The notes below the pieces were generated by a model that made no database searches, was not told where the DNA came from, and saw only the letters and a list, made by a program, of their open reading frames with translations. Positions 2,232-63,348 of a DNA stretch of 64,000 nt are shown one piece after another; position 1 is the first letter of the stretch; each line of letters starts with the position of its first letter. The translations under genes and the position numbers were made by a program. The stretch is from Bacteroidota bacterium (GTDB lineage Bacteria > Bacteroidota > Bacteroidia > NS11-12g > UBA955): assembly GCA_963169345.1 (NCBI GenBank), contig CAUJCT010000047.1:47076-111075 (forward strand), read 5' to 3'.

Positions 2232-3400
2232 GCTTGTCTTAATGTTATTCTGAAAGTTGTCTTTTTATTCGGAATACTTTCACGTACAAAAATATGACCC
2301 TTGTGGTAATTTTCTATAATTCTTTTGACTAAAGATAATCCCAAACCCCAACCTCTTTTCTTGGTTGTGAAGCCAGGCTTGAAAACCCGCTTAAACAAAG
2401 CTTTAGGCATGCCTTTGCCGGTGTCGCTGATGTCTATTACAATGGTATTGCCTTTGAGTCGACAAGATATGGTGATGGTGCCTTTGCCTTCCATGGCGTC
2501 AATGGCATTTTTGCAAATATTTTCTACGACCCATTCAAACAGCGGAACATTGATATTGGCAAATAAATTGACAGGCATTTCTTCAATAATATAAACCACT
2601 TCCTCGGCACTGCGATTCCTGATATACCCTATTGCCTGTCTTAGTTCAGCAGATATATCCACTTTGGAAAGAACCGGGGTGGATCCAATTTTTGAAAAAC
2701 GTTCGGTAATGACCTTTAATCTGTCCAGATCTTTCCTCATTTCTCCGAGTGAATCAGCATTGGCAAAACTCCGGTCTGTTTCTATCAAATCAACCCAGGC
2801 CATTAAAGAACTCATCGGTGTTCCCAATTGATGCGCTGTTTCTTTTGCTAAACCTACCCAAACCTGATTTTGTTCCGAACGACGGCTGTAACTGAAGGCA
2901 AAATAACTCACCAATACAAATAAACTGACGATTCCTAACTGAATGAAAGGATACACTTTCAGTTGTTTTAAAGTTGATGACTCATCATAATATACATACT
3001 GACTGTAATCTTCAGTGATTTTTATTTCTATTGGCTGGGTTTCAGTTTTAAGTTCAAGATAATAGGCATCCAGTCTTTTTTTAGAGCGAATCAAACTCGA
3101 ATCAATATTGCGATAAGTTAAATAGCCTGTTTCGTCGGCAAGAAAAACAGGAATAGTAGAATTGGATTCGACAATTTTTGCATAAAATGAGATATCCTGC
3201 TCAGGTTCAGATTTTGCAATGAGCTCCTGAGCTTCGGCCCACTGACTGATTTTCTTGCGTTCTTCCAGAGAAAGTTTCACCACCATTTTATTGGAATAGT
3301 ACAGGGAAAACAAACCTATAGCCAATGCCAGCAAGAGCAGGGCAAACTTCAAATACTGTTTGGTGCTGTAGTTATTCAAATTTAAATGTAGCTTTCTCAT
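2228..3400 (-). CDS. sensor histidine kinase (membrane-anchored, HisKA + HATPase_c)
   Basis: N-terminal TM segment. H-box at HQLGTPMSSLMAWVDLI. The N, G1 and G2 boxes include DTGKGMP and GWGLGLSLVKRI. Confidence 0.8.
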   Translation of the reverse strand: MRKLHLNLNNYSTKQYLKFALLLLALAIGLFSLYYSNKMVVKLSLEERKKISQWAEAQELIAKSEPEQDISFYAKIVESNSTIPVFLADETGYLTYRNIDSSLIRSKKRLDAYYLELKTETQPIEIKITEDYSQYVYYDESSTLKQLKVYPFIQLGIVSLFVLVSYFAFSYSRRSEQNQVWVGLAKETAHQLGTPMSSLMAWVDLIETDRSFANADSLGEMRKDLDRLKVITERFSKIGSTPVLSKVDISAELRQAIGYIRNRSAEEVVYIIEEMPVNLFANINVPLFEWVVENICKNAIDAMEGKGTITISCRLKGNTIVIDISDTGKGMPKALFKRVFKPGFTTKKRGWGLGLSLVKRIIENYHKGHIFVRESIPNKKTTFRITLRQA

Positions 3401-3478
3401 GTTGTCAACCTGAATGCGGCAGGTGGATGGTGTTCAAAAGTAAACATTTTAATTGAATTTCATTACCTTCGCCATCCA

Positions 3479-8561: not shown

Positions 8562-8652
8562 TAGTGTTTGCAAAGGGTTAGATAAACTAAGCTCGAAATT
8601 TCCTAAAGGATTTATTCAACCTGGCAGGTTGAATAGTGTGAAAAAGTAAAGT

Positions 8653-8684
8653 GTTAAGTCGTTAAGTTGTTAAGTCGTTAAGTC
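8653..8684. repeat. (GTTAAGTC)4 imperfect 8-mer microsatellite
   Basis: gttaagtc gttaagtt gttaagtc gttaagtc, read directly. Confidence 0.9.
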
Positions 8685-8730
8685 GTAGAGCTTTTCTATA
8701 TTATTTAAGTTTTCCCTAATAAATCTGTGA

Positions 8731-24940: not shown

Positions 24941-24942
24941 TG

Positions 24943-24966
24943 AACCTGTCAGGTTGGTTTTTATAA
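24943..24966 (+). terminator. stem-loop AACCTG-t-CAGGTT followed by GGTTTTT, 3 nt after the stop
   Basis: Palindrome plus T-run read directly. A second similar hairpin at 25010-25030 (ACCTG-a-CAGGT + TGTTTTG). Confidence 0.4.
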
Positions 24967-52241: not shown

Positions 52242-53786
52242 ATGAAAAAACTAAAATTATGCTTCTTTTTAGGCCTTTTGGCCAACTCTGCTTTTGCTCA
52301 GAATTTCGATTTAAATACCTATAAATTCCGTTATCAGAAATTCAGAGGTCTGCTTTATAATGTCAATCTGGGTGGATCTAACTCTTACAACTTTTCCAAT
52401 AATTCGGATAATTATGATTTGAATAAGCTGGTCACCTATAAAACAAAATCACCGGGTTTTAATTTTGATGGCAACTTAAGCATGGATTATTTTCAAATGA
52501 TCAATACCGATCGTTTACAACAGAATTTAAGTTTCGGATTATTTGCCCGTAATCAAAGAACTTCAAACAAATCAAAGCAGTCTGTCGATTTTGATGACAG
52601 AAATTCTCAGGATTATAGCAACTTTAATAAAAGTTCAATGCAGATCTACTCAGCCTATTTAAATTTAGACAACAGACTTTACTATAGAGGCAATAAGTTT
52701 TACTATTTAAATGTAAATGCGGATGCCTTTATATCAAAGAACTCAGGTAAAAGTGAATCCAATTATAATGGTCTGGTAAATGGTGCAAACGAGGCTGGTT
52801 CTATGAGTTCCAATTACGAATTAGGTTTGAAACTCGGGGCCGGAAGTGGAAGACTGGAGTATGTTTCAGATGCTGTATTAGCGAACTTTTTAATTAAAGA
52901 TTTAAAAAGAAAAGCCATGATAGGAGAGGTGAGTGACCAACAATTAATGGAGGTGGCTAAGTCCATAACCTATATTAAAAACAGGCGTTATTTAGATATG
53001 CGTTTTCGCGTAATTGAGCAAATAGAAATGATGGATTCACTCTTGCAATTTAACGGTATTTCAAGCGAAAAGAAAGCGAGATATTTTACAACTATTTATG
53101 ACAACTGGCTTTATGCCAACCAGATGGCACGATACAGTGGAAAGCGTTTCACTTACTTTATAACAAGTCAGAATATTACTTATGAAAACAGATTCAATTT
53201 ATACAGCACCGAGTTGTCAAGAATGAAAAAAGTACATAGTAGTTTGCAGTCAAAAAGTGGAATAGGATTGGAGTTCCAGTCTTCAAAACAAATCAATTTA
53301 AACATTCAGAAGTTATGGGGAATTGACTTTGCGGCCAGTTACAGTTATGCTCCTGTTACAAATGTTTTTGAAGACAGTCTTGAAACCCCAAATTATACCA
53401 GAACTGAGACGAAGCAGGTGGTGAAAAACCTGATTGTAGATCTGGGAGGACAATATGAAATTCTCTACCAACCAAACACCAGAACATATCTGCGTGCATT
53501 TGTAAGACCGGAGATGTTTTTCATAAAAATGTTGGATGAAGAAATTGAAACTGTAAATAAAAATATCAGTGGCTGGTCATACACAGCCAAGCTCAATTCG
53601 GGACTCGACTTTTTCAGGTTTATCAATGCAAGAGTATCTTTTAATGCGAATGTTCAGTTGAACTTAATGGGTTACAGAGCTGAAAATATTTATCAGTTTA
53701 ATCCGGATGGTACAGGAAAAAGATCCTTCAAGGAGACGCAAAATAATTTAGGATATAGCATCAGCTTGCGATATGCGATCTTTTAG
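52242..53786 (+). CDS. hypothetical outer-membrane beta-barrel protein
   Basis: Signal peptide MKKLKLCFFLGLLANSAFAQ. Ser/Asn/Tyr-rich alternating strands. C-terminal ...LRYAIF. Confidence 0.5.
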   Translation: MKKLKLCFFLGLLANSAFAQNFDLNTYKFRYQKFRGLLYNVNLGGSNSYNFSNNSDNYDLNKLVTYKTKSPGFNFDGNLSMDYFQMINTDRLQQNLSFGLFARNQRTSNKSKQSVDFDDRNSQDYSNFNKSSMQIYSAYLNLDNRLYYRGNKFYYLNVNADAFISKNSGKSESNYNGLVNGANEAGSMSSNYELGLKLGAGSGRLEYVSDAVLANFLIKDLKRKAMIGEVSDQQLMEVAKSITYIKNRRYLDMRFRVIEQIEMMDSLLQFNGISSEKKARYFTTIYDNWLYANQMARYSGKRFTYFITSQNITYENRFNLYSTELSRMKKVHSSLQSKSGIGLEFQSSKQINLNIQKLWGIDFAASYSYAPVTNVFEDSLETPNYTRTETKQVVKNLIVDLGGQYEILYQPNTRTYLRAFVRPEMFFIKMLDEEIETVNKNISGWSYTAKLNSGLDFFRFINARVSFNANVQLNLMGYRAENIYQFNPDGTGKRSFKETQNNLGYSISLRYAIF

Positions 53787-53790
53787 AATT

Positions 53791-53996
53791 CAACCTGCCT
53801 TAAAATTCAACCTGGCAGGTTAAATGTACCTAAATCTCAAATATTCAGCGTTTCAATTCGTTAAAATAATTAAGTCAACCTAGCAGGTTAAATTTCCGAA
53901 AGTTCTAAGTCAACCTAGCAGGTTAAATGCACCTAACCCTCAAATAAGCAGCATTCTAATTCGTTAAAATAATTAAGTCAACCTGCCAGGTTGATT
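53791..53996. repeat. tandem array of four to five AACCTGNCAGGTT palindromes (53809, 53877, 53912, 53980, plus a half-site at 53793) in a duplicated ~103-bp unit
   Basis: Read directly. The 55-bp spacers GGTTAAATG(T/C)ACCTAA...CGTTAAAATAATTAAGTCAACCT are about 85% identical. Confidence 0.85.
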
Positions 53997-54015
53997 TTGA
54001 CACTCCTCAAAAAAA

Positions 54016-54050
54016 AATTTGCACACTCCAAAAAATTCCTTTTACCTTTG
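54016..54050 (+). promoter_or_regulatory. candidate Bacteroidetes promoter (TTTG -33 ... TAccTTTG -7) driving the SAM riboswitch-metB-hom transcript
   Basis: TTTG at 54018-54021 and TACCTTTG at 54043-54050, 21-nt spacer. Confidence 0.3.
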
Positions 54051-54069
54051 CAGCAAGTTCTTAAAAACC

Positions 54070-54185
54070 CCATTCACTTATCCAGAAAGACGGAGGGAAT
54101 TGACCCGTTGATGTCTTGACAACCTAGTCCTGCGCGCAGGAAAAAGGTGCCAAATTCAACCGCTAACGCGGAAAGATAAGTTAGA
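54070..54185 (+). promoter_or_regulatory. SAM-I (S-box) riboswitch aptamer
   Basis: CTTATCCAGAAAGACGGAGGGAATTGACCCGTTGATGTCTTGACAACC...GGTGCCAAATTCAACCGCTAACGCGGAAAGATAAG matches the SAM-I consensus. The P1 strands are CTTATC 54078-54083 and GATAAG 54175-54180. The kink-turn and pseudoknot elements are present. Located upstream of a Cys/Met PLP enzyme plus hom. Confidence 0.85.
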
Positions 54186-54222
54186 ACCAGCTTTGTAATT
54201 TACCCATTACGGGATTATATAG

Positions 54223-54255
54223 GCTCTTCTGACTTGTCGGAAGAGCTTTTTTTTT
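54223..54255 (+). terminator. intrinsic terminator of the SAM riboswitch expression platform
   Basis: GCTCTTCTGAC-tt-GTCGGAAGAGC (11-bp stem with one G·U) followed by T9. Confidence 0.8.
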
Positions 54256-54331
54256 GCTCTCCGATAAGCCTGCCCCTCCTCTCTGGCAGTGAATGTTTTT
54301 ATGAAATTTTTAACATTAAACATTCAATACA

Positions 54332-55498
54332 ATGAAAGAAACAAGTTCAATTTTACACGCTATCCCGGTCGACCCGCTCACCGGTGCAGTCTCCGTACCC
54401 ATCTATCAAACCTCTACATTCGTGCAGGATGCTCCGGGTGTCAACAAAGGTTTTGATTATGCCCGAACCAATAACCCTACAAGACAAGTGTTCGAAAACC
54501 TTATCGCTCAACTCGAAGGTGGTGCTAAAGGTATCGCTTTTGCCAGTGGTCTCGCCGCTATTGATGCCGTTCTTAAACTTTTGGAAGCAGGCGATGAAAT
54601 CATTGCCATCGACGATATCTACGGTGGTGCTTTCCGTCAGTTCACTCATGTCTATCAGAAATTCGGTATCAAAGTGCATTATGTCGATGTTTCAATACCT
54701 GAGAATATCATCGATTACATAACACCTAAAACCAAATTGCTCTGGATTGAAACACCCACAAACCCTACGCTTAAAATTGCTGATTTAAAAACGCTGGGTT
54801 CTATTGCTCAATCTTTTAATTTGCTGTTTTGTGTCGACAATACTTTCGCTTCTCCGGTATTGCAAAAACCACTGAGTCTTGGTGCCGATATCGTTATTCA
54901 CAGTGCAACTAAATATCTTGGGGGACACAGTGATTTAATCGCAGGTGCTGTTGTAACCAAAACGGATGAACTGGGCGATAAAATAAAATTCATTCAAAAT
55001 GCCTCTGGTGCTATTCTGTCTCCATTCGATTCATGGTTGTTAATTCGGGGTATTGAAACTCTGCATCTTCGGGTTTTCAAGCATGCTGAGAATGCACTCA
55101 AAGTTGCTCAGTTTCTTAATCAATCTGAGCTGATTCGAAACGTGTATTATCCAGGTCTCCCGAACCATCTTGGACATCAAATTGCCGCTTCGCAAATGCT
55201 GGCTTTTGGTGGTGTCCTGAGTTTCGATTTTCACGATGACGACAAAGAGCTTGCTCTGGCGTTTTTAAAACATTTGAAGTTGTTTAAACTGGCTGAAAGT
55301 CTGGGAGGAGCAAAGAGTCTTTGTTGTCTGCCTTCTGAAATGACACATAAATCTATTCCTCGCGAAAAGCGTCTGTCTTCGGGTGTTAGTGATAGTTTGG
55401 TTCGTTTGTCGGTGGGGCTCGAAGATGCAGCCGACTTGACTGAAGATATACAAAGGGCTTTAAACAAATTAAAAATAAATACCATTCAACATGATTAA
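54332..55498 (+). CDS. Cys/Met-metabolism PLP-dependent enzyme (cystathionine gamma-synthase / beta-lyase family)
   Basis: 388 aa. YARTNNPTR. PLP-lysine region SATKYLGGHSDLIAG. Downstream of the SAM riboswitch. Confidence 0.85.
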   Translation: MKETSSILHAIPVDPLTGAVSVPIYQTSTFVQDAPGVNKGFDYARTNNPTRQVFENLIAQLEGGAKGIAFASGLAAIDAVLKLLEAGDEIIAIDDIYGGAFRQFTHVYQKFGIKVHYVDVSIPENIIDYITPKTKLLWIETPTNPTLKIADLKTLGSIAQSFNLLFCVDNTFASPVLQKPLSLGADIVIHSATKYLGGHSDLIAGAVVTKTDELGDKIKFIQNASGAILSPFDSWLLIRGIETLHLRVFKHAENALKVAQFLNQSELIRNVYYPGLPNHLGHQIAASQMLAFGGVLSFDFHDDDKELALAFLKHLKLFKLAESLGGAKSLCCLPSEMTHKSIPREKRLSSGVSDSLVRLSVGLEDAADLTEDIQRALNKLKINTIQHD

Positions 55499-56738
55499 GA
55501 GAAAACAATTACATATAGGTCTTTTCGGCTTTGGCTGTGTAGGTAAAGGACTTTATGATGTTCTGAACTTAAGTAAGCACCCCTGTGCCGAAATTGTAAA
55601 GATATGCGTCAAGGACAAAACTAAGGACAGGGGAGTAGCAAAGGATCTCATCACCTTTGATAAACATGAAATACTCAACGATGATTCGGTCAATTTAGTT
55701 GTCGAATTAATAGACGATTCGGAGGAAGCTTTTGATATTGTTAAGAAGGCCTTACTCGCCGGGAAGTCGGTGGTAACTGCCAATAAAAAGATGATAGCTG
55801 AACATTTTGATGATTTACTCAGTTTACAGGCTTCCACCGGTCAGGCATTGCTCTATGAAGCTGCGGCTTGCGCCAGTATTCCAATTATTCGAAATCTGGA
55901 AGAATACTACGATACAGACATTCTGAATCGCATAGAAGGTATCATCAATGGCAGCACAAATTACATACTGACGCGTTCGCTCAACGAAGGTTTAAGCTAT
56001 AAGGAGGCATTGCAAATCGCTCAACAATTAGGGTATGCCGAATCAAATCCGGGTCTGGATGTGGAAGGACACGATGCCGCTAACAAACTGTCGATTCTGT
56101 CTGCTCATGCTTTTGGCCGTTTTATTTTACCTGAGGATTTGCCCAGAACAGGTATTCAAAATATCACATCTGCTGAATTGAAATTTGCAAGACAAAACAA
56201 CTGGAAAATCAAATTGCTTGCAAAAGCTTATAAAACCAGCGAGGGACTTACAGCTTTTGTTATGCCTTCTTATGTCGATGATGATTCAGCTTTGTACAAA
56301 GTGGATGATGTATTCAATGGTGTTCAGACTGAAACAGTGTTCGCAGATAAACAGTTCTTTTCGGGCAGGGGAGCAGGTGCCTTTCCTACAGCTTCAGCAG
56401 TCTTAAGCGATATTTCGGCACTGAGTTACGATTACCGCTATGAATACAAAAAATTGAATCAGGGAAAGGATATTCCTTTGATAGATGATGTCATTCCGGT
56501 TTATTTGCGCAGCGAAGATGTCGATGAGTCTGTTTTGAGTGACAGTTTTGAACATATTTTTGAAGTTTTTAAATCAGGAAACCGATTACATATCTGCGGT
56601 CAGATAAAACTTAAGACAATCTTCACATGGTTGAAAACACATCCCAATATGGCAGTATTACATTTGCCTGAAACTTATGTAGAGATAAATTCGAAGGGAT
56701 TACCGATACTTGAATTAGAAAACTTATCTGAATTATGA
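55491..56738 (+). CDS. hom: homoserine dehydrogenase
   Basis: N-terminal Rossmann fold IGLFGFGCVGKG. Catalytic region NGSTNYIL...GYAESNPGLDVEGHDAANKLSILSAHAFG. Overlaps the upstream gene by 8 nt. Confidence 0.85.
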   Translation: MIKRKQLHIGLFGFGCVGKGLYDVLNLSKHPCAEIVKICVKDKTKDRGVAKDLITFDKHEILNDDSVNLVVELIDDSEEAFDIVKKALLAGKSVVTANKKMIAEHFDDLLSLQASTGQALLYEAAACASIPIIRNLEEYYDTDILNRIEGIINGSTNYILTRSLNEGLSYKEALQIAQQLGYAESNPGLDVEGHDAANKLSILSAHAFGRFILPEDLPRTGIQNITSAELKFARQNNWKIKLLAKAYKTSEGLTAFVMPSYVDDDSALYKVDDVFNGVQTETVFADKQFFSGRGAGAFPTASAVLSDISALSYDYRYEYKKLNQGKDIPLIDDVIPVYLRSEDVDESVLSDSFEHIFEVFKSGNRLHICGQIKLKTIFTWLKTHPNMAVLHLPETYVEINSKGLPILELENLSEL

Positions 56739-57343
56739 CATTACAGTATATTTTTGAATTAACTGGCACAGCATTGTTTGCCGCATCCGGGGCACTGGTG
56801 GCTAACGATAAAAGCAATGCCGACTGGTTTGGGGTCACCTTTCTGGGACTGATAACTTGTTTGGGAGGAGGCTCTTTCAGGGACATATTACTGGGAGCTT
56901 ACCCTCTGGCATGGATTAAAGATATTTCGGTATTAATAGCAGGCTTTACGGGTATTATTTTAGCGGCACTCTTTTACAATGCACTGAAACGCTATAGAAA
57001 AAATTTGTTCATTGTTGAGACATTTGCCTTGGGGATGTTTACCATAATTGGCACACAAAAGGCGCTCGACTTCGGTGTTCACCCATTAATAGCTGCAGTG
57101 ATGGGCATGTTTTCTGCCGTCATGGGAGGCGTATTAAGAGATGTGTTAACCAATGAAATTCCGGTTTTGTTTAAGAAAGAAATCTATGCCACAGCCTGTG
57201 TTGCCGGAGCTCTGCTATATGTACTTTTAGTAAGGACGAGCAGTTTCCCTCAACTGAATCTGATACTTTCAGCTTTGCTCATAGTGTTTATACGTTTTAT
57301 CTCTGTTAGGTACAAATTGAGTTTGCCAAAGTTTAGGAATTGA
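56735..57343 (+). CDS. TRIC/UPF0126 family membrane protein (two glycine-rich repeats)
   Basis: Duplicated motif LGGGSFRDILLG / VMGGVLRDVLTN in a ~200-aa, 6-7-TM protein. Confidence 0.6.
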   Translation: MTLQYIFELTGTALFAASGALVANDKSNADWFGVTFLGLITCLGGGSFRDILLGAYPLAWIKDISVLIAGFTGIILAALFYNALKRYRKNLFIVETFALGMFTIIGTQKALDFGVHPLIAAVMGMFSAVMGGVLRDVLTNEIPVLFKKEIYATACVAGALLYVLLVRTSSFPQLNLILSALLIVFIRFISVRYKLSLPKFRN

Positions 57344-57494: not shown

Positions 57495-57899
57495 TTGTTT
57501 GTCTTTTTCATCAGAAATCCTATTTTTGGAACTTTGATGAAAACTAAAGACTATCAAAAAGGCTTGCATATTTTAGCTGAACTCAGTTCCGAAAATCTCT
57601 CAAGGTTAACGGATGCTGCGCCTTTTATTCAATATGTGCAAGAGCAAATAATAAAAAACGGATTGAGTCAACTGGGTGATGTACAACACAACTTTGATGG
57701 TGGTGGATTTACTGCGGTAGTTTGTTTGACGGAGTCGCATTTATCTGTTCATACCTGGCCTGAATACGGCATAGTAACTACCGATGTGTATCTGTCCAAT
57801 TTCATGAAGGATAATCAGGATGCTTGCAGAAATTTGTATAAAGCCATCAGAGATTTTTTTGAAGCTGAAGAAATTAATGTTCAGGAAGTATGGCGATAA
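57495..57899 (+). CDS. speH: S-adenosylmethionine decarboxylase proenzyme, small (Bacillus/SpeH) type; likely true start MKTKDY at 57537
   Basis: CLTESHLSVHTWPEYG contains the E-S self-cleavage site and the conserved HTWPE motif. Confidence 0.8.
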   Translation: MFVFFIRNPIFGTLMKTKDYQKGLHILAELSSENLSRLTDAAPFIQYVQEQIIKNGLSQLGDVQHNFDGGGFTAVVCLTESHLSVHTWPEYGIVTTDVYLSNFMKDNQDACRNLYKAIRDFFEAEEINVQEVWR

Positions 57900-58552
57900 G
57901 GGCATTAAGTACATCCACTTGCAGCAATTGCAAACAAGAATTTGAATTGTATTCAAGGCAAACAGATTTTTATATCTGCCCTCAATGTATTCAGGTATAC
58001 ACAAAGCAGGATTTAAATTTAAAGTTTTCTGCTAAATACATTCGCAAACCTGATACCATGTCTCATCTGCAAATAGGCACTGAAGGTAATATAGATGGCA
58101 GAGCTTTCAAGGTAATAGGATGTCTGGTTTTAATATTTGAAGAGAAATTCATTCAACTTTGGAGGGTAGTAGATTCTGATAAGCAAATGGACTGGATAAT
58201 TCAATTTCCAGGTTATTTTCTGGAGGCTCGTTTTACAGAAATCAATCACAATGATTATAAAGACTTAGAGTTGAAGCTGGCATTGAGCGGGCACAATTTG
58301 CCCGGATTAAATATAAGCTATACTTTAAACTGTATCACGAGATATAAATACGCTTATGCCCTGGGTGAAGTCAATATGATCATGGAAGAGAATGACAAGG
58401 GTTTGTTGTATTTGTTTCAGTCGCATAAAGGTCAGCAATTTTTATTGTTTGTCAATTCTGCCGATTCGATGACTGCTATCAATGCTCAGCACAGAGAACT
58501 GTCGGAGTTTGGTTTATCAAAAACTAAAGAGCTTGGTCTATGGAGTATTTAA
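57890..58552 (+). CDS. zinc-ribbon + DUF4178-like protein
   Basis: N-terminal CSNC...CPQC ribbon. 220 aa. Overlaps speH by 10 nt. Confidence 0.45.
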   Translation: MAIRALSTSTCSNCKQEFELYSRQTDFYICPQCIQVYTKQDLNLKFSAKYIRKPDTMSHLQIGTEGNIDGRAFKVIGCLVLIFEEKFIQLWRVVDSDKQMDWIIQFPGYFLEARFTEINHNDYKDLELKLALSGHNLPGLNISYTLNCITRYKYAYALGEVNMIMEENDKGLLYLFQSHKGQQFLLFVNSADSMTAINAQHRELSEFGLSKTKELGLWSI

Positions 58553-59817
58553 ATACCATACCGCCTCCGGTTGAGTTTGATTGCCCAAAATGCAAGAAGA
58601 CAAATATCAAATATCTGCATGATCAGACTCTGAATTATATATGCCCTCATTGTTATGTAGTCATTGATAATTTAAACAGAACTTATGATTTTGAACTGAG
58701 GAAAAATGTAAGGAAGTTTTATCTGAAACTGGGTGCTATTGGCATTGTTAAAGATGTGAAGTACATGGTAACCGGTATGCTCAATAAAAAGAGTGTAGAA
58801 GACCATTCGATATGGACTGAATATACTTTGTATAATCCTGAGAAAGGATACGCATGGTTGACAGTTTACGATGGCAACTGGACTTTTGTTGAAGAGATGT
58901 CAGTGCCTCCCTTATATAAATGGCCTTATTACCAAAAGGATTACAGCCGGTATATCAATTATGACAATGATGTTTATACAAAGTTTTTGATATATAATAC
59001 TTTAGTAATTGCCGGAAAAGGGGAGTTTCATTACGACCTGAATTCAGTTGAATCGGCTCTCACCGTTGAATACATCAAACCTCCGTACCTGATTAGTTTT
59101 ACAAAAACTGAAAACGAAATCATGTGGTTTAAGGGCGAATACATTGAAAATGATTTAATACGCTCAGGCTTTGATTTAGATGAACTACCGCGCAAACAAT
59201 CCCAGGGTTATCTGGAAGAGTACAAAGATCAAAACAGAAGCAGAACAGCACTCACCTTATATCTGATAACGCTTTTGATTGCTGCTCTGTATATGCTGGT
59301 TGACAACTCAATTCGTGATAGTACCAAAGTATTGAACTATTCTGAATTTGAAGTTTTGCCCATCGCTATGGACCATTATAAAAAAGTGGGGGAATTTAAA
59401 TTACATCAAAACCATCAGGTGCTTGAATTTAAATTCAGATGTGCTGAACTACACAATGAATGGGCTTATATGGATGTAGAACTATTGGAAAAGAAATCAG
59501 GAAAAACCACATATTTCAATATGCCTGTTGAATTTTATTCAGGATATGATGGAGGCGAATCGTGGACTGAAGGGGATAATGAAAATAATGCCATTCTTTC
59601 AAATATGGAGAAGGGCGAATATTCGGTTGGTATTAAAGCGATAGGCTCAGGAAATACGCCATTAACAGTGAATTTGAGTGTAGAGAAAAATATTCCGATT
59701 TTCAGAAACTTTTTCATGCTGGTACTCGTTGCCAGTATTGTTCCGCTTTACCACCTCTATAAATCCAGAAAATTCGAAATTAATCGATGGTTACATAGCA
59801 ATTTAAACGATGAATAA
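58540..59817 (+). CDS. zinc-ribbon + DUF4178-like protein with C-terminal membrane segments
   Basis: N-terminal CPKC...CPHC ribbon. Paralogous fold to the previous gene. Hydrophobic helices LTLYLITLLIAALYMLV and FFMLVLVASIVPLY. Confidence 0.45.
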   Translation: MEYLNTIPPPVEFDCPKCKKTNIKYLHDQTLNYICPHCYVVIDNLNRTYDFELRKNVRKFYLKLGAIGIVKDVKYMVTGMLNKKSVEDHSIWTEYTLYNPEKGYAWLTVYDGNWTFVEEMSVPPLYKWPYYQKDYSRYINYDNDVYTKFLIYNTLVIAGKGEFHYDLNSVESALTVEYIKPPYLISFTKTENEIMWFKGEYIENDLIRSGFDLDELPRKQSQGYLEEYKDQNRSRTALTLYLITLLIAALYMLVDNSIRDSTKVLNYSEFEVLPIAMDHYKKVGEFKLHQNHQVLEFKFRCAELHNEWAYMDVELLEKKSGKTTYFNMPVEFYSGYDGGESWTEGDNENNAILSNMEKGEYSVGIKAIGSGNTPLTVNLSVEKNIPIFRNFFMLVLVASIVPLYHLYKSRKFEINRWLHSNLNDE

Positions 59818-59879
59818 ATTAATTAACGATATCCGTTTGGGCATTCGACTCAATAAATTCTATACAATCTATCTGTTGA

Positions 59880-60224
59880 TTGTATTGGGATTTTTTGTTT
59901 ACTTGCAATATTCCGGTTATGCCTTGTTTAGTTCTCCAAACGACAAGGAGGTTAACACTGGTGGCGGTAACTCGGGCCGATCATCTTATTTTTATCATAA
60001 ATAATATTATGGAAAATTATATACACATAAAAGCAATTATAGCATCTGTTACCTTTTCAATTATCGGAACAGTTTTGCTCCTCCTGATGTTTTGGATTGT
60101 TGAGAAATTAACACCTGAAAACCTTTGGAAAGAAATTCTTGTCAATCAAAATAAAGCTCTTGCTATAGTTATTGGAGCTTTCGTGCTTGCAATCGGTATC
60201 ATCATTGCATCTGCTATTCATTGA
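59880..60224 (+). CDS. small DUF350-like membrane protein
   Basis: 114 aa, about 3 TM. Overlaps the next gene by 4 nt. Confidence 0.45.
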   Translation: MYWDFLFTCNIPVMPCLVLQTTRRLTLVAVTRADHLIFIINNIMENYIHIKAIIASVTFSIIGTVLLLLMFWIVEKLTPENLWKEILVNQNKALAIVIGAFVLAIGIIIASAIH

Positions 60225-61723
60225 AGAACTCTGTCTTACTTCTGATCTCTGTATTTGTTATCGCAACCTGTGGCTTAATCTATGAATTGGTCGCAGGCAC
60301 TCTTGCAAGTTATTTGCTGGGTGATTCAATTACTCAGTTTTCGACTATCATAGGTCTGTATTTGTTTTCAATGGGTATAGGGTCCTTTCTGTCCAAATTT
60401 GTAAAGGGAAATTTGCTCAGTAAATTTATTCAGATTGAATTCCTAATCGGTTTTCTTGGTGGTGTAAGTAGTGGTCTTCTATTTTACTTGTTTAATTATG
60501 TCGACTCATTCAGGATAATATTATACGCACTGGTTGCTATCACTGGTACTTTGGTCGGGATAGAAATTCCCTTAATCATGCGAATACTGAAAGATAATTT
60601 CAAATTCAATGACTTGATTTCAAATGTCTTTACTTTTGACTATATAGGAGCACTATTAGCATCTTTAATTTTTCCTCTGATATTGGTGCCTTATCTCGGA
60701 TTGATTAAAACGTCTTTGTTGTTTGGAGTACTAAATGTTTCTGTAGGATTGGTGCTGTGTTTCAGTTTGGATAAAGCCCATGTTTGGGTAAATAAATTGA
60801 AAGCCATTGGTATGGCAGTTGTATTGCTTTTAATTGTTGGTTTTGCTTTTTCTGATGCTTTAACTCAACACAATGAAGAAGTTTTCCTGGGCGAGAAAAT
60901 TATAATTGCACGCTCTTCTCCTTATCAAAGGGTTATAGTGACTTCCAATAAAGGCAGATTCAGATTGTACCTCAATGGCAATCTCCAGTTCAGCAGCGAT
61001 GATGAATACCGTTACCATGAAGCTCTGGTACATCCGCCATTTAGATTTAATTCAGACATTAATCGTGTTCTGGTTTTAGGTGGTGGAGATGGTATGGCAG
61101 TGCGTGAACTACTTAAATACAAGCAGATTTCATCCATTCAATTGGTGGATCTCGACCCGGTCATGTTGAAATTGTTTAAGGAAAATTCTCTGCTGGCCAA
61201 ACTCAATCAACATGCACTCAGCGATAAAAGGCTGAAAGTGTACAACGATGATGCAATGAAGTGGGTAGCGATTTGCAAGGATTCATTTGACCTGATTTGT
61301 GTTGACTTCCCTGACCCCGGAAATTATGCTATTGGTAAACTCTACACCAATACTTTTTATAAATCGATTCAACCACTGTTAAAATCTAAAGGTCTTATGG
61401 TGGTGCAATCTACTTCTCCTTTTTTTGCACCTAAATCGTTTTGGTGTGTAGAACATACCATTCAATCTGTCGGATTTAATACACTGCCTTACCATATATA
61501 CCTGCCTTCTTTTGGCGAATGGGGTTTTGTGATGGCTAGCAAACAATCGATATTAAACCATTCAGGACATTTTGCAGATGGTTTAAAATTTATCAACGAC
61601 GAAACCTTTCAAACTGCCACTGTTTTTCCTGCTGATATGAAAGCAGATAAGGTAGATGTCAATAGATTGGATAATCAGGTTTTGGTCAATTATTTTGAAG
61701 ATGAATGGGGTAAAATTCAATGA
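60221..61723 (+). CDS. speE: polyamine aminopropyltransferase (spermidine synthase) with N-terminal multi-TM domain
   Basis: About 200 aa of TM helices, then VLVLGGGDGMAVRELLKY...VDLDPVML...DFPDP, the spermidine synthase SAM-binding and catalytic motifs. Confidence 0.8.
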   Translation: MKNSVLLLISVFVIATCGLIYELVAGTLASYLLGDSITQFSTIIGLYLFSMGIGSFLSKFVKGNLLSKFIQIEFLIGFLGGVSSGLLFYLFNYVDSFRIILYALVAITGTLVGIEIPLIMRILKDNFKFNDLISNVFTFDYIGALLASLIFPLILVPYLGLIKTSLLFGVLNVSVGLVLCFSLDKAHVWVNKLKAIGMAVVLLLIVGFAFSDALTQHNEEVFLGEKIIIARSSPYQRVIVTSNKGRFRLYLNGNLQFSSDDEYRYHEALVHPPFRFNSDINRVLVLGGGDGMAVRELLKYKQISSIQLVDLDPVMLKLFKENSLLAKLNQHALSDKRLKVYNDDAMKWVAICKDSFDLICVDFPDPGNYAIGKLYTNTFYKSIQPLLKSKGLMVVQSTSPFFAPKSFWCVEHTIQSVGFNTLPYHIYLPSFGEWGFVMASKQSILNHSGHFADGLKFINDETFQTATVFPADMKADKVDVNRLDNQVLVNYFEDEWGKIQ

Positions 61724-63348
61724 GTGATTCCCGGAAAATATCCAGAAAAACTTTCGTTAAATTGGGGCTCCTGGCCAGTGCAGGCGCAGGTATTGGTATT
61801 TGGTCGTGGTCGAAGTCTCAACCTGAAAAATCAAATCAATGGTCTCTTAATTCGGTCAACAACAATGCCGATATCGCTCACATGATGCGGGATGGTATTC
61901 ATATAGTACCCAATCAAATTATCGAAATGCCTGTAGTGATTTTAGGCGCGGGTGTAGCAGGTATGTCTGCAGCTATGCACTTATCTCAGGCTGGTATGAA
62001 CGAATATGTCTTGCTCGAAATGGGCGAACAAAACGGAGGCAATTCTGTTTCCGGGAGCAATGATACAAGTGCTTTTCCCTGGGGTGCTCACTATTTGCCA
62101 TTGCCCAATTTAAATCAACCTGAACTTATCGATTTTTTACATCGATCTGGAATCATCACTGGTTTCGATGCCAATCAATTACCGGTCTATGATGAAATTA
62201 ATATTTGTTTTGACCCTGAAGAACGGTTATTTATTGATGGGAAATGGAGAGATGGTATTGAACCTGAATCTGCACTTTCTTCCAAAGATATTGAGCAGTT
62301 GGAATCTTTTCATTCTATGATGAAGGACTACCAGAACAGTATCGGAAGCGATGGTAAAGAAGCTTTCTGTATCCCTGTTCATCTGTCTTCAAGAGATGAA
62401 GCGTTTCTGAAACTGGATGAATTATCCATGGCCGATTTTTGCAAGAACAATGGCTTCGATTCCGAATTTTTGAAATGGTATGTCAATTACGCTTGTCTCG
62501 ATGACTATGGAGCTGATGCAGATACAGTCTCAGCATGGGCAGGTATTCATTATTTCGCCTCAAGAAAAGGAAAGGCAGCCAATGTTAAGACCGGGCAATG
62601 CCTGACCTGGCCTGAAGGCAACTACCGTTTAATCCAAAAACTTCAAAACAATATTAAGGGTCAATCATTGTCGCATCAGTTGGTTTATAAAGTAGATAAA
62701 GTCAATGAAGTTTACCAGATAGATGTTTATGATTATAAACTGAAAACATACAAACGCTATCAAACCAAACAAGTTATTGCAGCTCTGCCAAATTTTGTTT
62801 GCAAACGTATTTTTAACTCAGCTCTGATACCAGTTGAATCTGTGAGCTATCAGTACTATCCCTGGCTGGTAGCCAATATGAAAGTGGATTACAGAAAGCT
62901 AAAGTCTAATGGTGTCAGATTGAGCTGGGATAATGTGGTATACGGCAGATCTTCTCTTGGATATGTGAATGCCTGTCATCAACATTTGAATTACTCTGAA
63001 TCTTTGTTGAATTTAACTTTTTATCTTCCAATAAAAAAGGGAGAGGCGTCTGAGTCGCGCCAATGGGCCGGGTCTCAGACAAAGGAGAGTTGGAAACAAC
63101 TTATTTTAAATGAACTCGAAGTAGCTCATCCGGATGTAAATGAGGCCATCATCGACATGCAATACAAATTATGGGGACATGCCATGATAGCGCCTGTTAA
63201 GGGGTTTATCTCTGCAAAGTTGAGAAAAACAAAAACGCCATCTCAGGGATTGTATTTTGCACATAGCGACCAAAGTGGAATTTCTATTTTTGAAGAAGCT
63301 TTTTATCACGGTATTAAAGCCGCAAAATCCATTTTATCTCACGTATGA
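61720..63348 (+). CDS. FAD-dependent amine-oxidase-like oxidoreductase
   Basis: VVILGAGVAGMSAAMHL dinucleotide-binding motif plus ...GGN... 542 aa. Overlaps speE by 4 nt. Confidence 0.65.
   Translation: MSDSRKISRKTFVKLGLLASAGAGIGIWSWSKSQPEKSNQWSLNSVNNNADIAHMMRDGIHIVPNQIIEMPVVILGAGVAGMSAAMHLSQAGMNEYVLLEMGEQNGGNSVSGSNDTSAFPWGAHYLPLPNLNQPELIDFLHRSGIITGFDANQLPVYDEINICFDPEERLFIDGKWRDGIEPESALSSKDIEQLESFHSMMKDYQNSIGSDGKEAFCIPVHLSSRDEAFLKLDELSMADFCKNNGFDSEFLKWYVNYACLDDYGADADTVSAWAGIHYFASRKGKAANVKTGQCLTWPEGNYRLIQKLQNNIKGQSLSHQLVYKVDKVNEVYQIDVYDYKLKTYKRYQTKQVIAALPNFVCKRIFNSALIPVESVSYQYYPWLVANMKVDYRKLKSNGVRLSWDNVVYGRSSLGYVNACHQHLNYSESLLNLTFYLPIKKGEASESRQWAGSQTKESWKQLILNELEVAHPDVNEAIIDMQYKLWGHAMIAPVKGFISAKLRKTKTPSQGLYFAHSDQSGISIFEEAFYHGIKAAKSILSHV

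Follow-up and report, generated by a model that had tools for sequence, protein, structure and literature searches.

A SAM-I riboswitch with a predicted transcriptional OFF platform in the leader of a metB-like/hom operon of a Bacteroidota bacterium

Genes and repeats of the locus

The DNA analyzed here is a 64,000-nt stretch from a Bacteroidota bacterium (referred to as the window), which also encodes GldN, type IX secretion sorting domains and CHU_C, a gene content that fits this phylum. The region studied comprises three genes preceded by a leader with a SAM-I aptamer:

54332..55498, plus strand: gene 1, Cys/Met-metabolism PLP enzyme, 388 aa (PF01053, Cys_Met_Meta_PP; E 4e-145)
55491..56738, plus strand: gene 2, monofunctional homoserine dehydrogenase (hom), 415 aa (PF00742, PF03447, NF004976)
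56735..57343, plus strand: gene 3, UPF0126/PF03458 ('Gly_transporter') membrane protein, 202 aa (family search)

The hom gene overlaps gene 1 by 8 nt and is itself overlapped by the UPF0126 gene by 4 nt (ATGA). Because of these overlapping reading frames the three genes are assigned to one operon, and the ATGA overlap predicts translational coupling of the UPF0126 protein to hom. The PLP enzyme encoded by gene 1 did not reach any NCBIfam equivalog cut-off. Among solved structures it is closest to 4l0o, a cystathionine gamma-synthase, and its nearest structural relatives are a mixture of cystathionine gamma-synthases, gamma-lyases and beta-lyases. In view of the missing equivalog match and the mixed structural neighbors, the enzyme is not assigned to MetB, MetC, MetZ or gamma-lyase in particular. 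The initial annotation placed a riboswitch before a metB-like/hom operon, and "metB-like" is a fair description of a PF01053 enzyme gene followed by that of homoserine dehydrogenase; on the same grounds as above, the accompanying term "transsulfuration enzyme" is not established.

The match of hom to NF004976 scored 321 bits against a cut-off of 205. In residues of about 317-415, this protein shows no match to the part of NF004976 that contains the ACT domain, nor to a Pfam family, and therefore threonine feedback via an ACT domain is not evident.

For comparison, 80 loci with orthologues of the PLP enzyme (67-73% identity) were obtained from a scan of one genome per species. They come mostly from Bacteroidota (Flavobacterium, Chitinophagaceae, Sphingobacteriales, Saprospiraceae, Cytophagales and Crocinitomicaceae), with a few metagenome-assembled bins named otherwise (Rhizobium, Competibacteraceae, Akkermansia); the window's own species is absent from this set. 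A UPF0126 gene occupies the third position in only three of the 80 loci (L001, L004 and L031), with 87% identity in L001. Its product could be a transporter of a methionine-pathway metabolite. Neither this third gene nor the antiterminator described below was mentioned in the initial annotation.

Downstream of the met operon, on the same strand, lies a polyamine-type cluster:

57537-63348, plus strand: polyamine-type gene cluster of the window (also L001:7057-9122 and L031:5840-7014)

The order of its genes is SAM-decarboxylase-like, a 220-aa ORF (57890-58552), DUF4178, DUF350, spermidine-synthase-like and FAD amine-oxidase-like. No terminator was predicted after 57343, between the met operon and the speD-like cluster. 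In the window, L001 and L031, a -7 box (TAttTTTG, 57521-28) with a -33 TTTG precedes the speD-like ATG by 8-9 nt, so that the mRNA would have no leader or almost none. Given this conserved -33/-7 promoter, co-transcription of the cluster with the met operon was rejected; as read from the sequence, the cluster most likely has its own promoter and forms a separate unit.

On the upstream side, the spacer extending from the stop of the preceding gene (53786) to the met-operon promoter is filled by two 92-nt direct repeats (53804-53895 and 53907-53998), which are 85% identical and each bounded by the palindrome TCAACCTGNCAGGTT. The window contains seven sites of this palindrome:

830-846, 8616-8632, 24941-24957, 53807-53823, 53875-53889, 53910-53924, 53978-53994: palindrome TCAACCTGNCAGGTT

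These sites give 12 strand matches, compared to 0.06 expected. Every one of them lies just 3' of a stop codon, one being placed between a convergent gene pair, and the palindrome is absent from all 80 related loci. The four spacer copies (53807-53994) were considered as sites for a regulator of the met promoter, an idea rejected because the palindrome also occurs 3' of three other genes and is missing from the 80 loci. TCAACCTGNCAGGTT appears to be a REP-like or terminator-like element that is specific to this genome and has nothing to do with the switch. Units resembling GTTAAGTC (gttaagtcgttaagttgttaagtcgttaagtcg) form a short tandem array at 8650-8690, adjoining one copy of TCAACCTGNCAGGTT between convergent genes.

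The aptamer, its promoter and the expression platform

The following elements were identified in the leader:

54018..54021, plus strand: -33 element TTTG, 21 nt upstream of the -7 box (read from the sequence)
54043..54050, plus strand: -7 element TAccTTTG (TACCTTTG; consensus TAnnTTTG; read from the sequence)
54057..54062, plus strand: GTTCTT, shared by most orthologous leaders, where the transcript is predicted to begin
54075..54182, plus strand: SAM-I aptamer (RF00162; covariance-model match)
54076-82 with 54175-81, plus strand: P1, ACUUAUC with GAUAAGU
Plus strand: J1/2, CAGA
54087-91 with 54113-17, plus strand: P2a
54095-97 with 54104-06, plus strand: P2b
54100-03 with 54156-59, plus strand: pseudoknot between the P2 loop and J3-4, UUGA with UCAA
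54122-24 with 54146-48, plus strand: P3, with an inner stem, 54128-32 with 54137-41
54160-63 with 54168-71, plus strand: P4
54175..54238, plus strand: antiterminator hairpin (unconstrained MFE fold)
54221..54255, plus strand: intrinsic terminator, a 12-bp hairpin (54221-54248, loop CUUG) with a T9 run (54247-54255)

A scan of the whole window with Rfam 15 matched RF00162 (SAM-I, S-box leader) to positions 54075-54182 of the plus strand with 67.8 bits (E 1.2e-13; gathering score 44.4 bits). The match is full-length (model positions 1-108 of 108), and no other Rfam family exceeded its gathering score anywhere in the window. The S-box/SAM-I call of the initial annotation, which a score below the gathering threshold of RF00162 was to have refuted, stands, and the details given there were mostly right within 1-2 bases. 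The element does not belong to the SAM-I/IV family (RF01725), as only RF00162 survived clan competition and the internal loop of P2 is present. By sequence alignment, P2 contains a K-turn-type motif, with a GGA bulge opposite UGAU (gGA ... UGAAg in the model, GGA ... UGAUG in the window). The aptamer of the window departs from none of the 45 invariant columns in a set of 18 aptamers; its score is near the bottom of the range found in relatives (67.7-90.4 bits). The distance from its end to the ATG of the PF01053 enzyme gene is 149 nt.

The TTTG and TAccTTTG motifs are predicted to constitute a -33/-7 promoter of the Bacteroidota type. The presence of a TAnnTTTG box upstream of P1 had been noted in the initial annotation; the motif is there, but the spacing to P1 (54076/54077) is 25-26 nt rather than 27 nt. 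Of 73 orthologous leaders, 63 have the -7 motif 16-24 nt ahead of the aptamer and 66 have it at any place within the preceding 90 nt, compared to 6% of background 90-nt windows. At a matching -33 spacing, TTTG or TTTGG is found in most of these leaders.

Two pairing partners were considered for the GTTCTT sequence, AGAAC after P1 (a P1 extension) and the 3' arm of the terminator. RNAalifold, applied to the leader alignment, did not assign it any partner, and GTTCTT remains unchanged in loci where the terminator arm becomes GGUGAG. It is missing from both leaders of L039, and a GTTCTT-like sequence follows a tRNA promoter in L040 (1530-1547). With no partner, its absence in L039 and the similar sequence at the L040 tRNA promoter, GTTCTT was not counted among the demonstrable parts of the switch; a relation to the promoter or to the start site is possible.

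The terminator begins 38 nt past the end of the aptamer model and 40 nt past P1. Its hairpin has 12 pairs, including 5 G-C and 2 G-U, closed by a 4-nt loop. The initial annotation had described an 11-bp GC-rich hairpin followed by T9, 40 nt downstream of the aptamer: distance, T-run and approximate size hold, but with 5 G-C pairs "GC-rich" is an overstatement. In the antiterminator, GAUAAGUUAGAA (54175-86) pairs with UUCUGACUUGUC (54227-38). The first of these strands corresponds to the 3' strand of P1 without its last base (54181), plus six further bases, while the second comprises the 5' arm of the terminator, its loop and two bases of the 3' arm. A hairpin in the linker lengthens the antiterminator helix and also pairs with the base of the terminator 5' arm.

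The unconstrained MFE structure of the leader was the antiterminator form (-58.6 kcal/mol), in which P2-P4 are kept and P1 is unformed. When the seven P1 pairs were enforced, the full aptamer and the terminator formed (-51.6 kcal/mol); by the nearest-neighbor model, the antiterminator state is the more stable one by 7 kcal/mol. A gap of this size would be expected to be bridged by ligand and tertiary contacts together with co-transcriptional folding, on which switching would then depend. As modeled, this would be the classic S-box arrangement of anti-antiterminator, antiterminator and terminator, with OFF logic. No Shine-Dalgarno-like sequence that could be sequestered was seen near the ATG on reading positions 53700-54700.

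Both the aptamer and the terminator are supported by the orthologous leaders. Across 75 orthologous aptamers, 98.7% of the cells in the helices and the pseudoknot were paired, with changes on both sides in two pairs of P2, four pairs of P4 and three of the four pseudoknot pairs; P2b and P3 were invariant and P1 (almost) invariant. For the pseudoknot, 96.6% of cells were paired, variants such as CAGG/CCUG and AUGG/CCAU being found among relatives. The covariation score of the aptamer was reached by none of 500 shuffles, and in slid controls pairing fell to 31-50%. The terminator, analyzed in 61 distinct leaders, had 97.5% of cells paired and changes on both sides in 6 of its 12 pairs (arm variants GCUCUUC/GAAGAGC, GCCUUUC/GAAAGGC and CUCAUC/GGUGAG), values that were again not reached by any of 500 shuffles. 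A simple scan detected the hairpin with its T-run in 71 of 74 leaders, and RNAalifold recovered aptamer and terminator independently.

The antiterminator helix was 88% paired in the 61 distinct leaders, despite a one-base register slip in the Flavobacterium rows. Folding of individual leaders, each taken from the 3' strand of P1 up to the terminator loop, gave it as the MFE structure for 53 out of 63 distinct sequences (mean z -3.8), with shifted versions in the rest. As the P1 strand is (almost) invariant, the helix shows conservation instead of covariation, and its support therefore comes from conservation and thermodynamics. For the same reason, namely that it must complement an invariant P1 strand, the expression platform is conserved almost base for base. 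The claim of the initial annotation that the platform is complete and acts with OFF logic agrees with the two mutually exclusive predicted folds, the covariation of the terminator and the conservation of the antiterminator.

In comparison with the SAM-I riboswitches of RF00162 (Bacillus subtilis yitJ and metIC, Thermoanaerobacter tengcongensis metF), the element of the window has the same four-way junction of P1-P4, K-turn-type bulge in P2 and pseudoknot. The sharing of the P1 3' strand with an antiterminator, the intrinsic terminator, the OFF logic and the position in the leader of methionine genes are likewise the same (PMC2258182). The architecture is thus identical; what differs is the promoter, which in the window is of the -33/-7 Bacteroidota type and not a sigma-70 -35/-10 promoter. 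A further difference from the Rfam consensus is that P2a starts with A-U pairs (AAGAC/GUCUU) instead of G-C, a trait of the lineage that is invariant in all 73 distinct related aptamers.

SAM riboswitches at orthologous loci

RF00162 was found above the gathering score upstream of the orthologue in all 16 loci sampled with Rfam. With a covariance model built from these aptamers, a SAM-I aptamer was detected in 73 of the 80 loci. Three others carry a SAM-I/IV riboswitch (RF01725) before the metB-like/hom operon instead:

L007:3759-3855, L015:1368-1462, L033:3762-3857: SAM-I/IV riboswitch (RF01725), 52-56 bits

Three further loci (L026, L035 and L063) are cut off upstream of the orthologue, and in L034, which also lacks hom, no SAM riboswitch was detected. 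SAM-I or SAM-I/IV therefore precedes the operon in 76 of the 77 loci having enough upstream sequence to judge. The hom gene directly follows the metB-like gene in 75 of the 80 loci, two of the five exceptions being truncated. The SAM-I/IV elements belong to the same clan (CL00012) and share the ligand-binding core, and the window element keeps the internal loop of P2 that these variants lack (PMC2864571). As judged from the sequences, SAM-I appears to have been replaced on occasion by SAM-I/IV at this orthologous position, one riboswitch class by another.

The locus of Adhaeribacter terrigena (L039) contains a second, divergent SAM-I aptamer (3334-3440, minus strand; 75 bits) before a gene whose product begins like the methionine synthase MetH. 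Its -7 box and P1 are just 3 nt apart and no obvious terminator follows, which suggests a different expression platform for this minus-strand element.

The initial annotation had considered SAM-I riboswitches to be reported less often in Bacteroidota, a view at odds with the literature and with the above counts: SAM-I was already reported in Bacteroidetes by Barrick and Breaker in 2007 (PMC2258182). In Bacteroidaceae, Sun et al. (2013) identified no more than two RNA regulogs, and their main text places no SAM regulon there (PMC3766115). This study, limited to the one family, is the sole support for rarity and may have been behind the idea of under-reporting. Our literature search found nothing on an S-box in Cytophaga, nor on an S-box riboswitch together with homoserine dehydrogenase in Bacteroid- taxa.

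Proposed control of the methionine branch

We consider it very probable that the element is a canonical SAM-I riboswitch which, from within the leader, switches off transcription of a three-gene methionine-branch operon. Transcription would start a few bases past the TAccTTTG -7 box. At low SAM, 54175-86 would pair with 54227-38 and the linker hairpin would extend this helix, so that the terminator is blocked and the polymerase enters the operon. With SAM bound, the four-way junction and the pseudoknot would lock P1 (54076-82 with 54175-81), freeing the 5' arm of the terminator; the 12-bp hairpin and the U-run would then form and transcription would halt 75 nt before the ATG. In silico, the analysis demonstrates the identity of the aptamer and the two mutually exclusive structures, conserved or covarying in about 70 orthologous leaders, and from it we infer SAM binding and the actual termination response. 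The content of the operon indicates that SAM represses homoserine formation and the next, sulfur-dependent step.

How far such repression would reach depends on the role of hom. A bifunctional aspartokinase/homoserine dehydrogenase (thrA), encoded in a thr operon, is present in many Bacteroidota. In Clostridioides difficile, one of the two hom genes (hom1, CD1166) is controlled by a SAM-I riboswitch and the second by T-boxes (PMC11477304); as proposed for the window, SAM-I there governs a monofunctional homoserine dehydrogenase of the methionine branch (PMC11477304, PMC12452182). In the window, hom is second, behind the Cys/Met PLP gene, and is preceded by a single aptamer, in a different phylum; in other Bacillota, tandem SAM riboswitches are found before hom1 (PMC11477304, PMC12452182). 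Because of the thrA genes of Bacteroidota and the C. difficile precedent, we favor the view that hom may well encode an isozyme dedicated to methionine and not the sole homoserine dehydrogenase of the cell. The initial annotation had the switch couple methionine and threonine precursor supply, which assumes the opposite. That it is the only one, so that SAM also throttles the supply of threonine and isoleucine precursors, is the less likely reading but one to be taken seriously: hom lies inside the riboswitch-controlled operon, and the 64-kb window contains no thrA-type or second homoserine dehydrogenase gene. Against it, apart from the two arguments just given, threonine starvation at high SAM would be maladaptive.

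It is rather improbable that the transcript, besides encoding a UPF0126 protein that might transport a methionine-pathway metabolite, reads through into the 57537-63348 cluster and that GTTCTT acts as an extra regulatory module outside the SAM-I model. If true, read-through would tie SAM sensing to the consumption of SAM for polyamine synthesis.

Another reading accepts the aptamer as real and assigns control mainly to Rho-dependent termination, mRNA stability or translation initiation, the hairpin and U-run playing a minor part. Expression platforms are indeed not provable from sequence, a stretch of 75 nt (54257-54331) separates the terminator from the ATG, and the L039 minus-strand element before the metH-like gene, without an obvious terminator, points to other platforms in the phylum. 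We nevertheless regard this as very unlikely, since the terminator covaries and the antiterminator is conserved in about 70 leaders, the latter employs precisely the 3' strand of P1, and nothing resembling a Shine-Dalgarno sequence lies near the ATG. Finally, it is highly unlikely that the aptamer is decayed or re-specialized (e.g., for SAH, or constitutive) and the hairpin a fixed attenuator or the terminator of the upstream gene (52242-53786): its score is at the low end for relatives and ligand specificity is not readable from sequence, but all invariant columns are kept in a full-length match, a conserved promoter lies between the upstream gene and the aptamer, and that gene has palindromic terminator-like elements of its own (53807-53994).

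The canonical OFF switch proposed here is an ordinary member of a long-known class that automatic annotation can recognize, and a SAM-I element at this position is the rule and not the exception. The significance of the finding lies mainly in correct annotation, to which the comparative data add a modest point. The element indicates SAM feedback on the methionine branch through transcription termination, acting on homoserine formation and the sulfur-incorporation/transsulfuration step, and the unit of SAM riboswitch, metB-like gene and hom is near-universal across Flavobacteriales, Chitinophagales, Sphingobacteriales, Cytophagales and Saprospirales.
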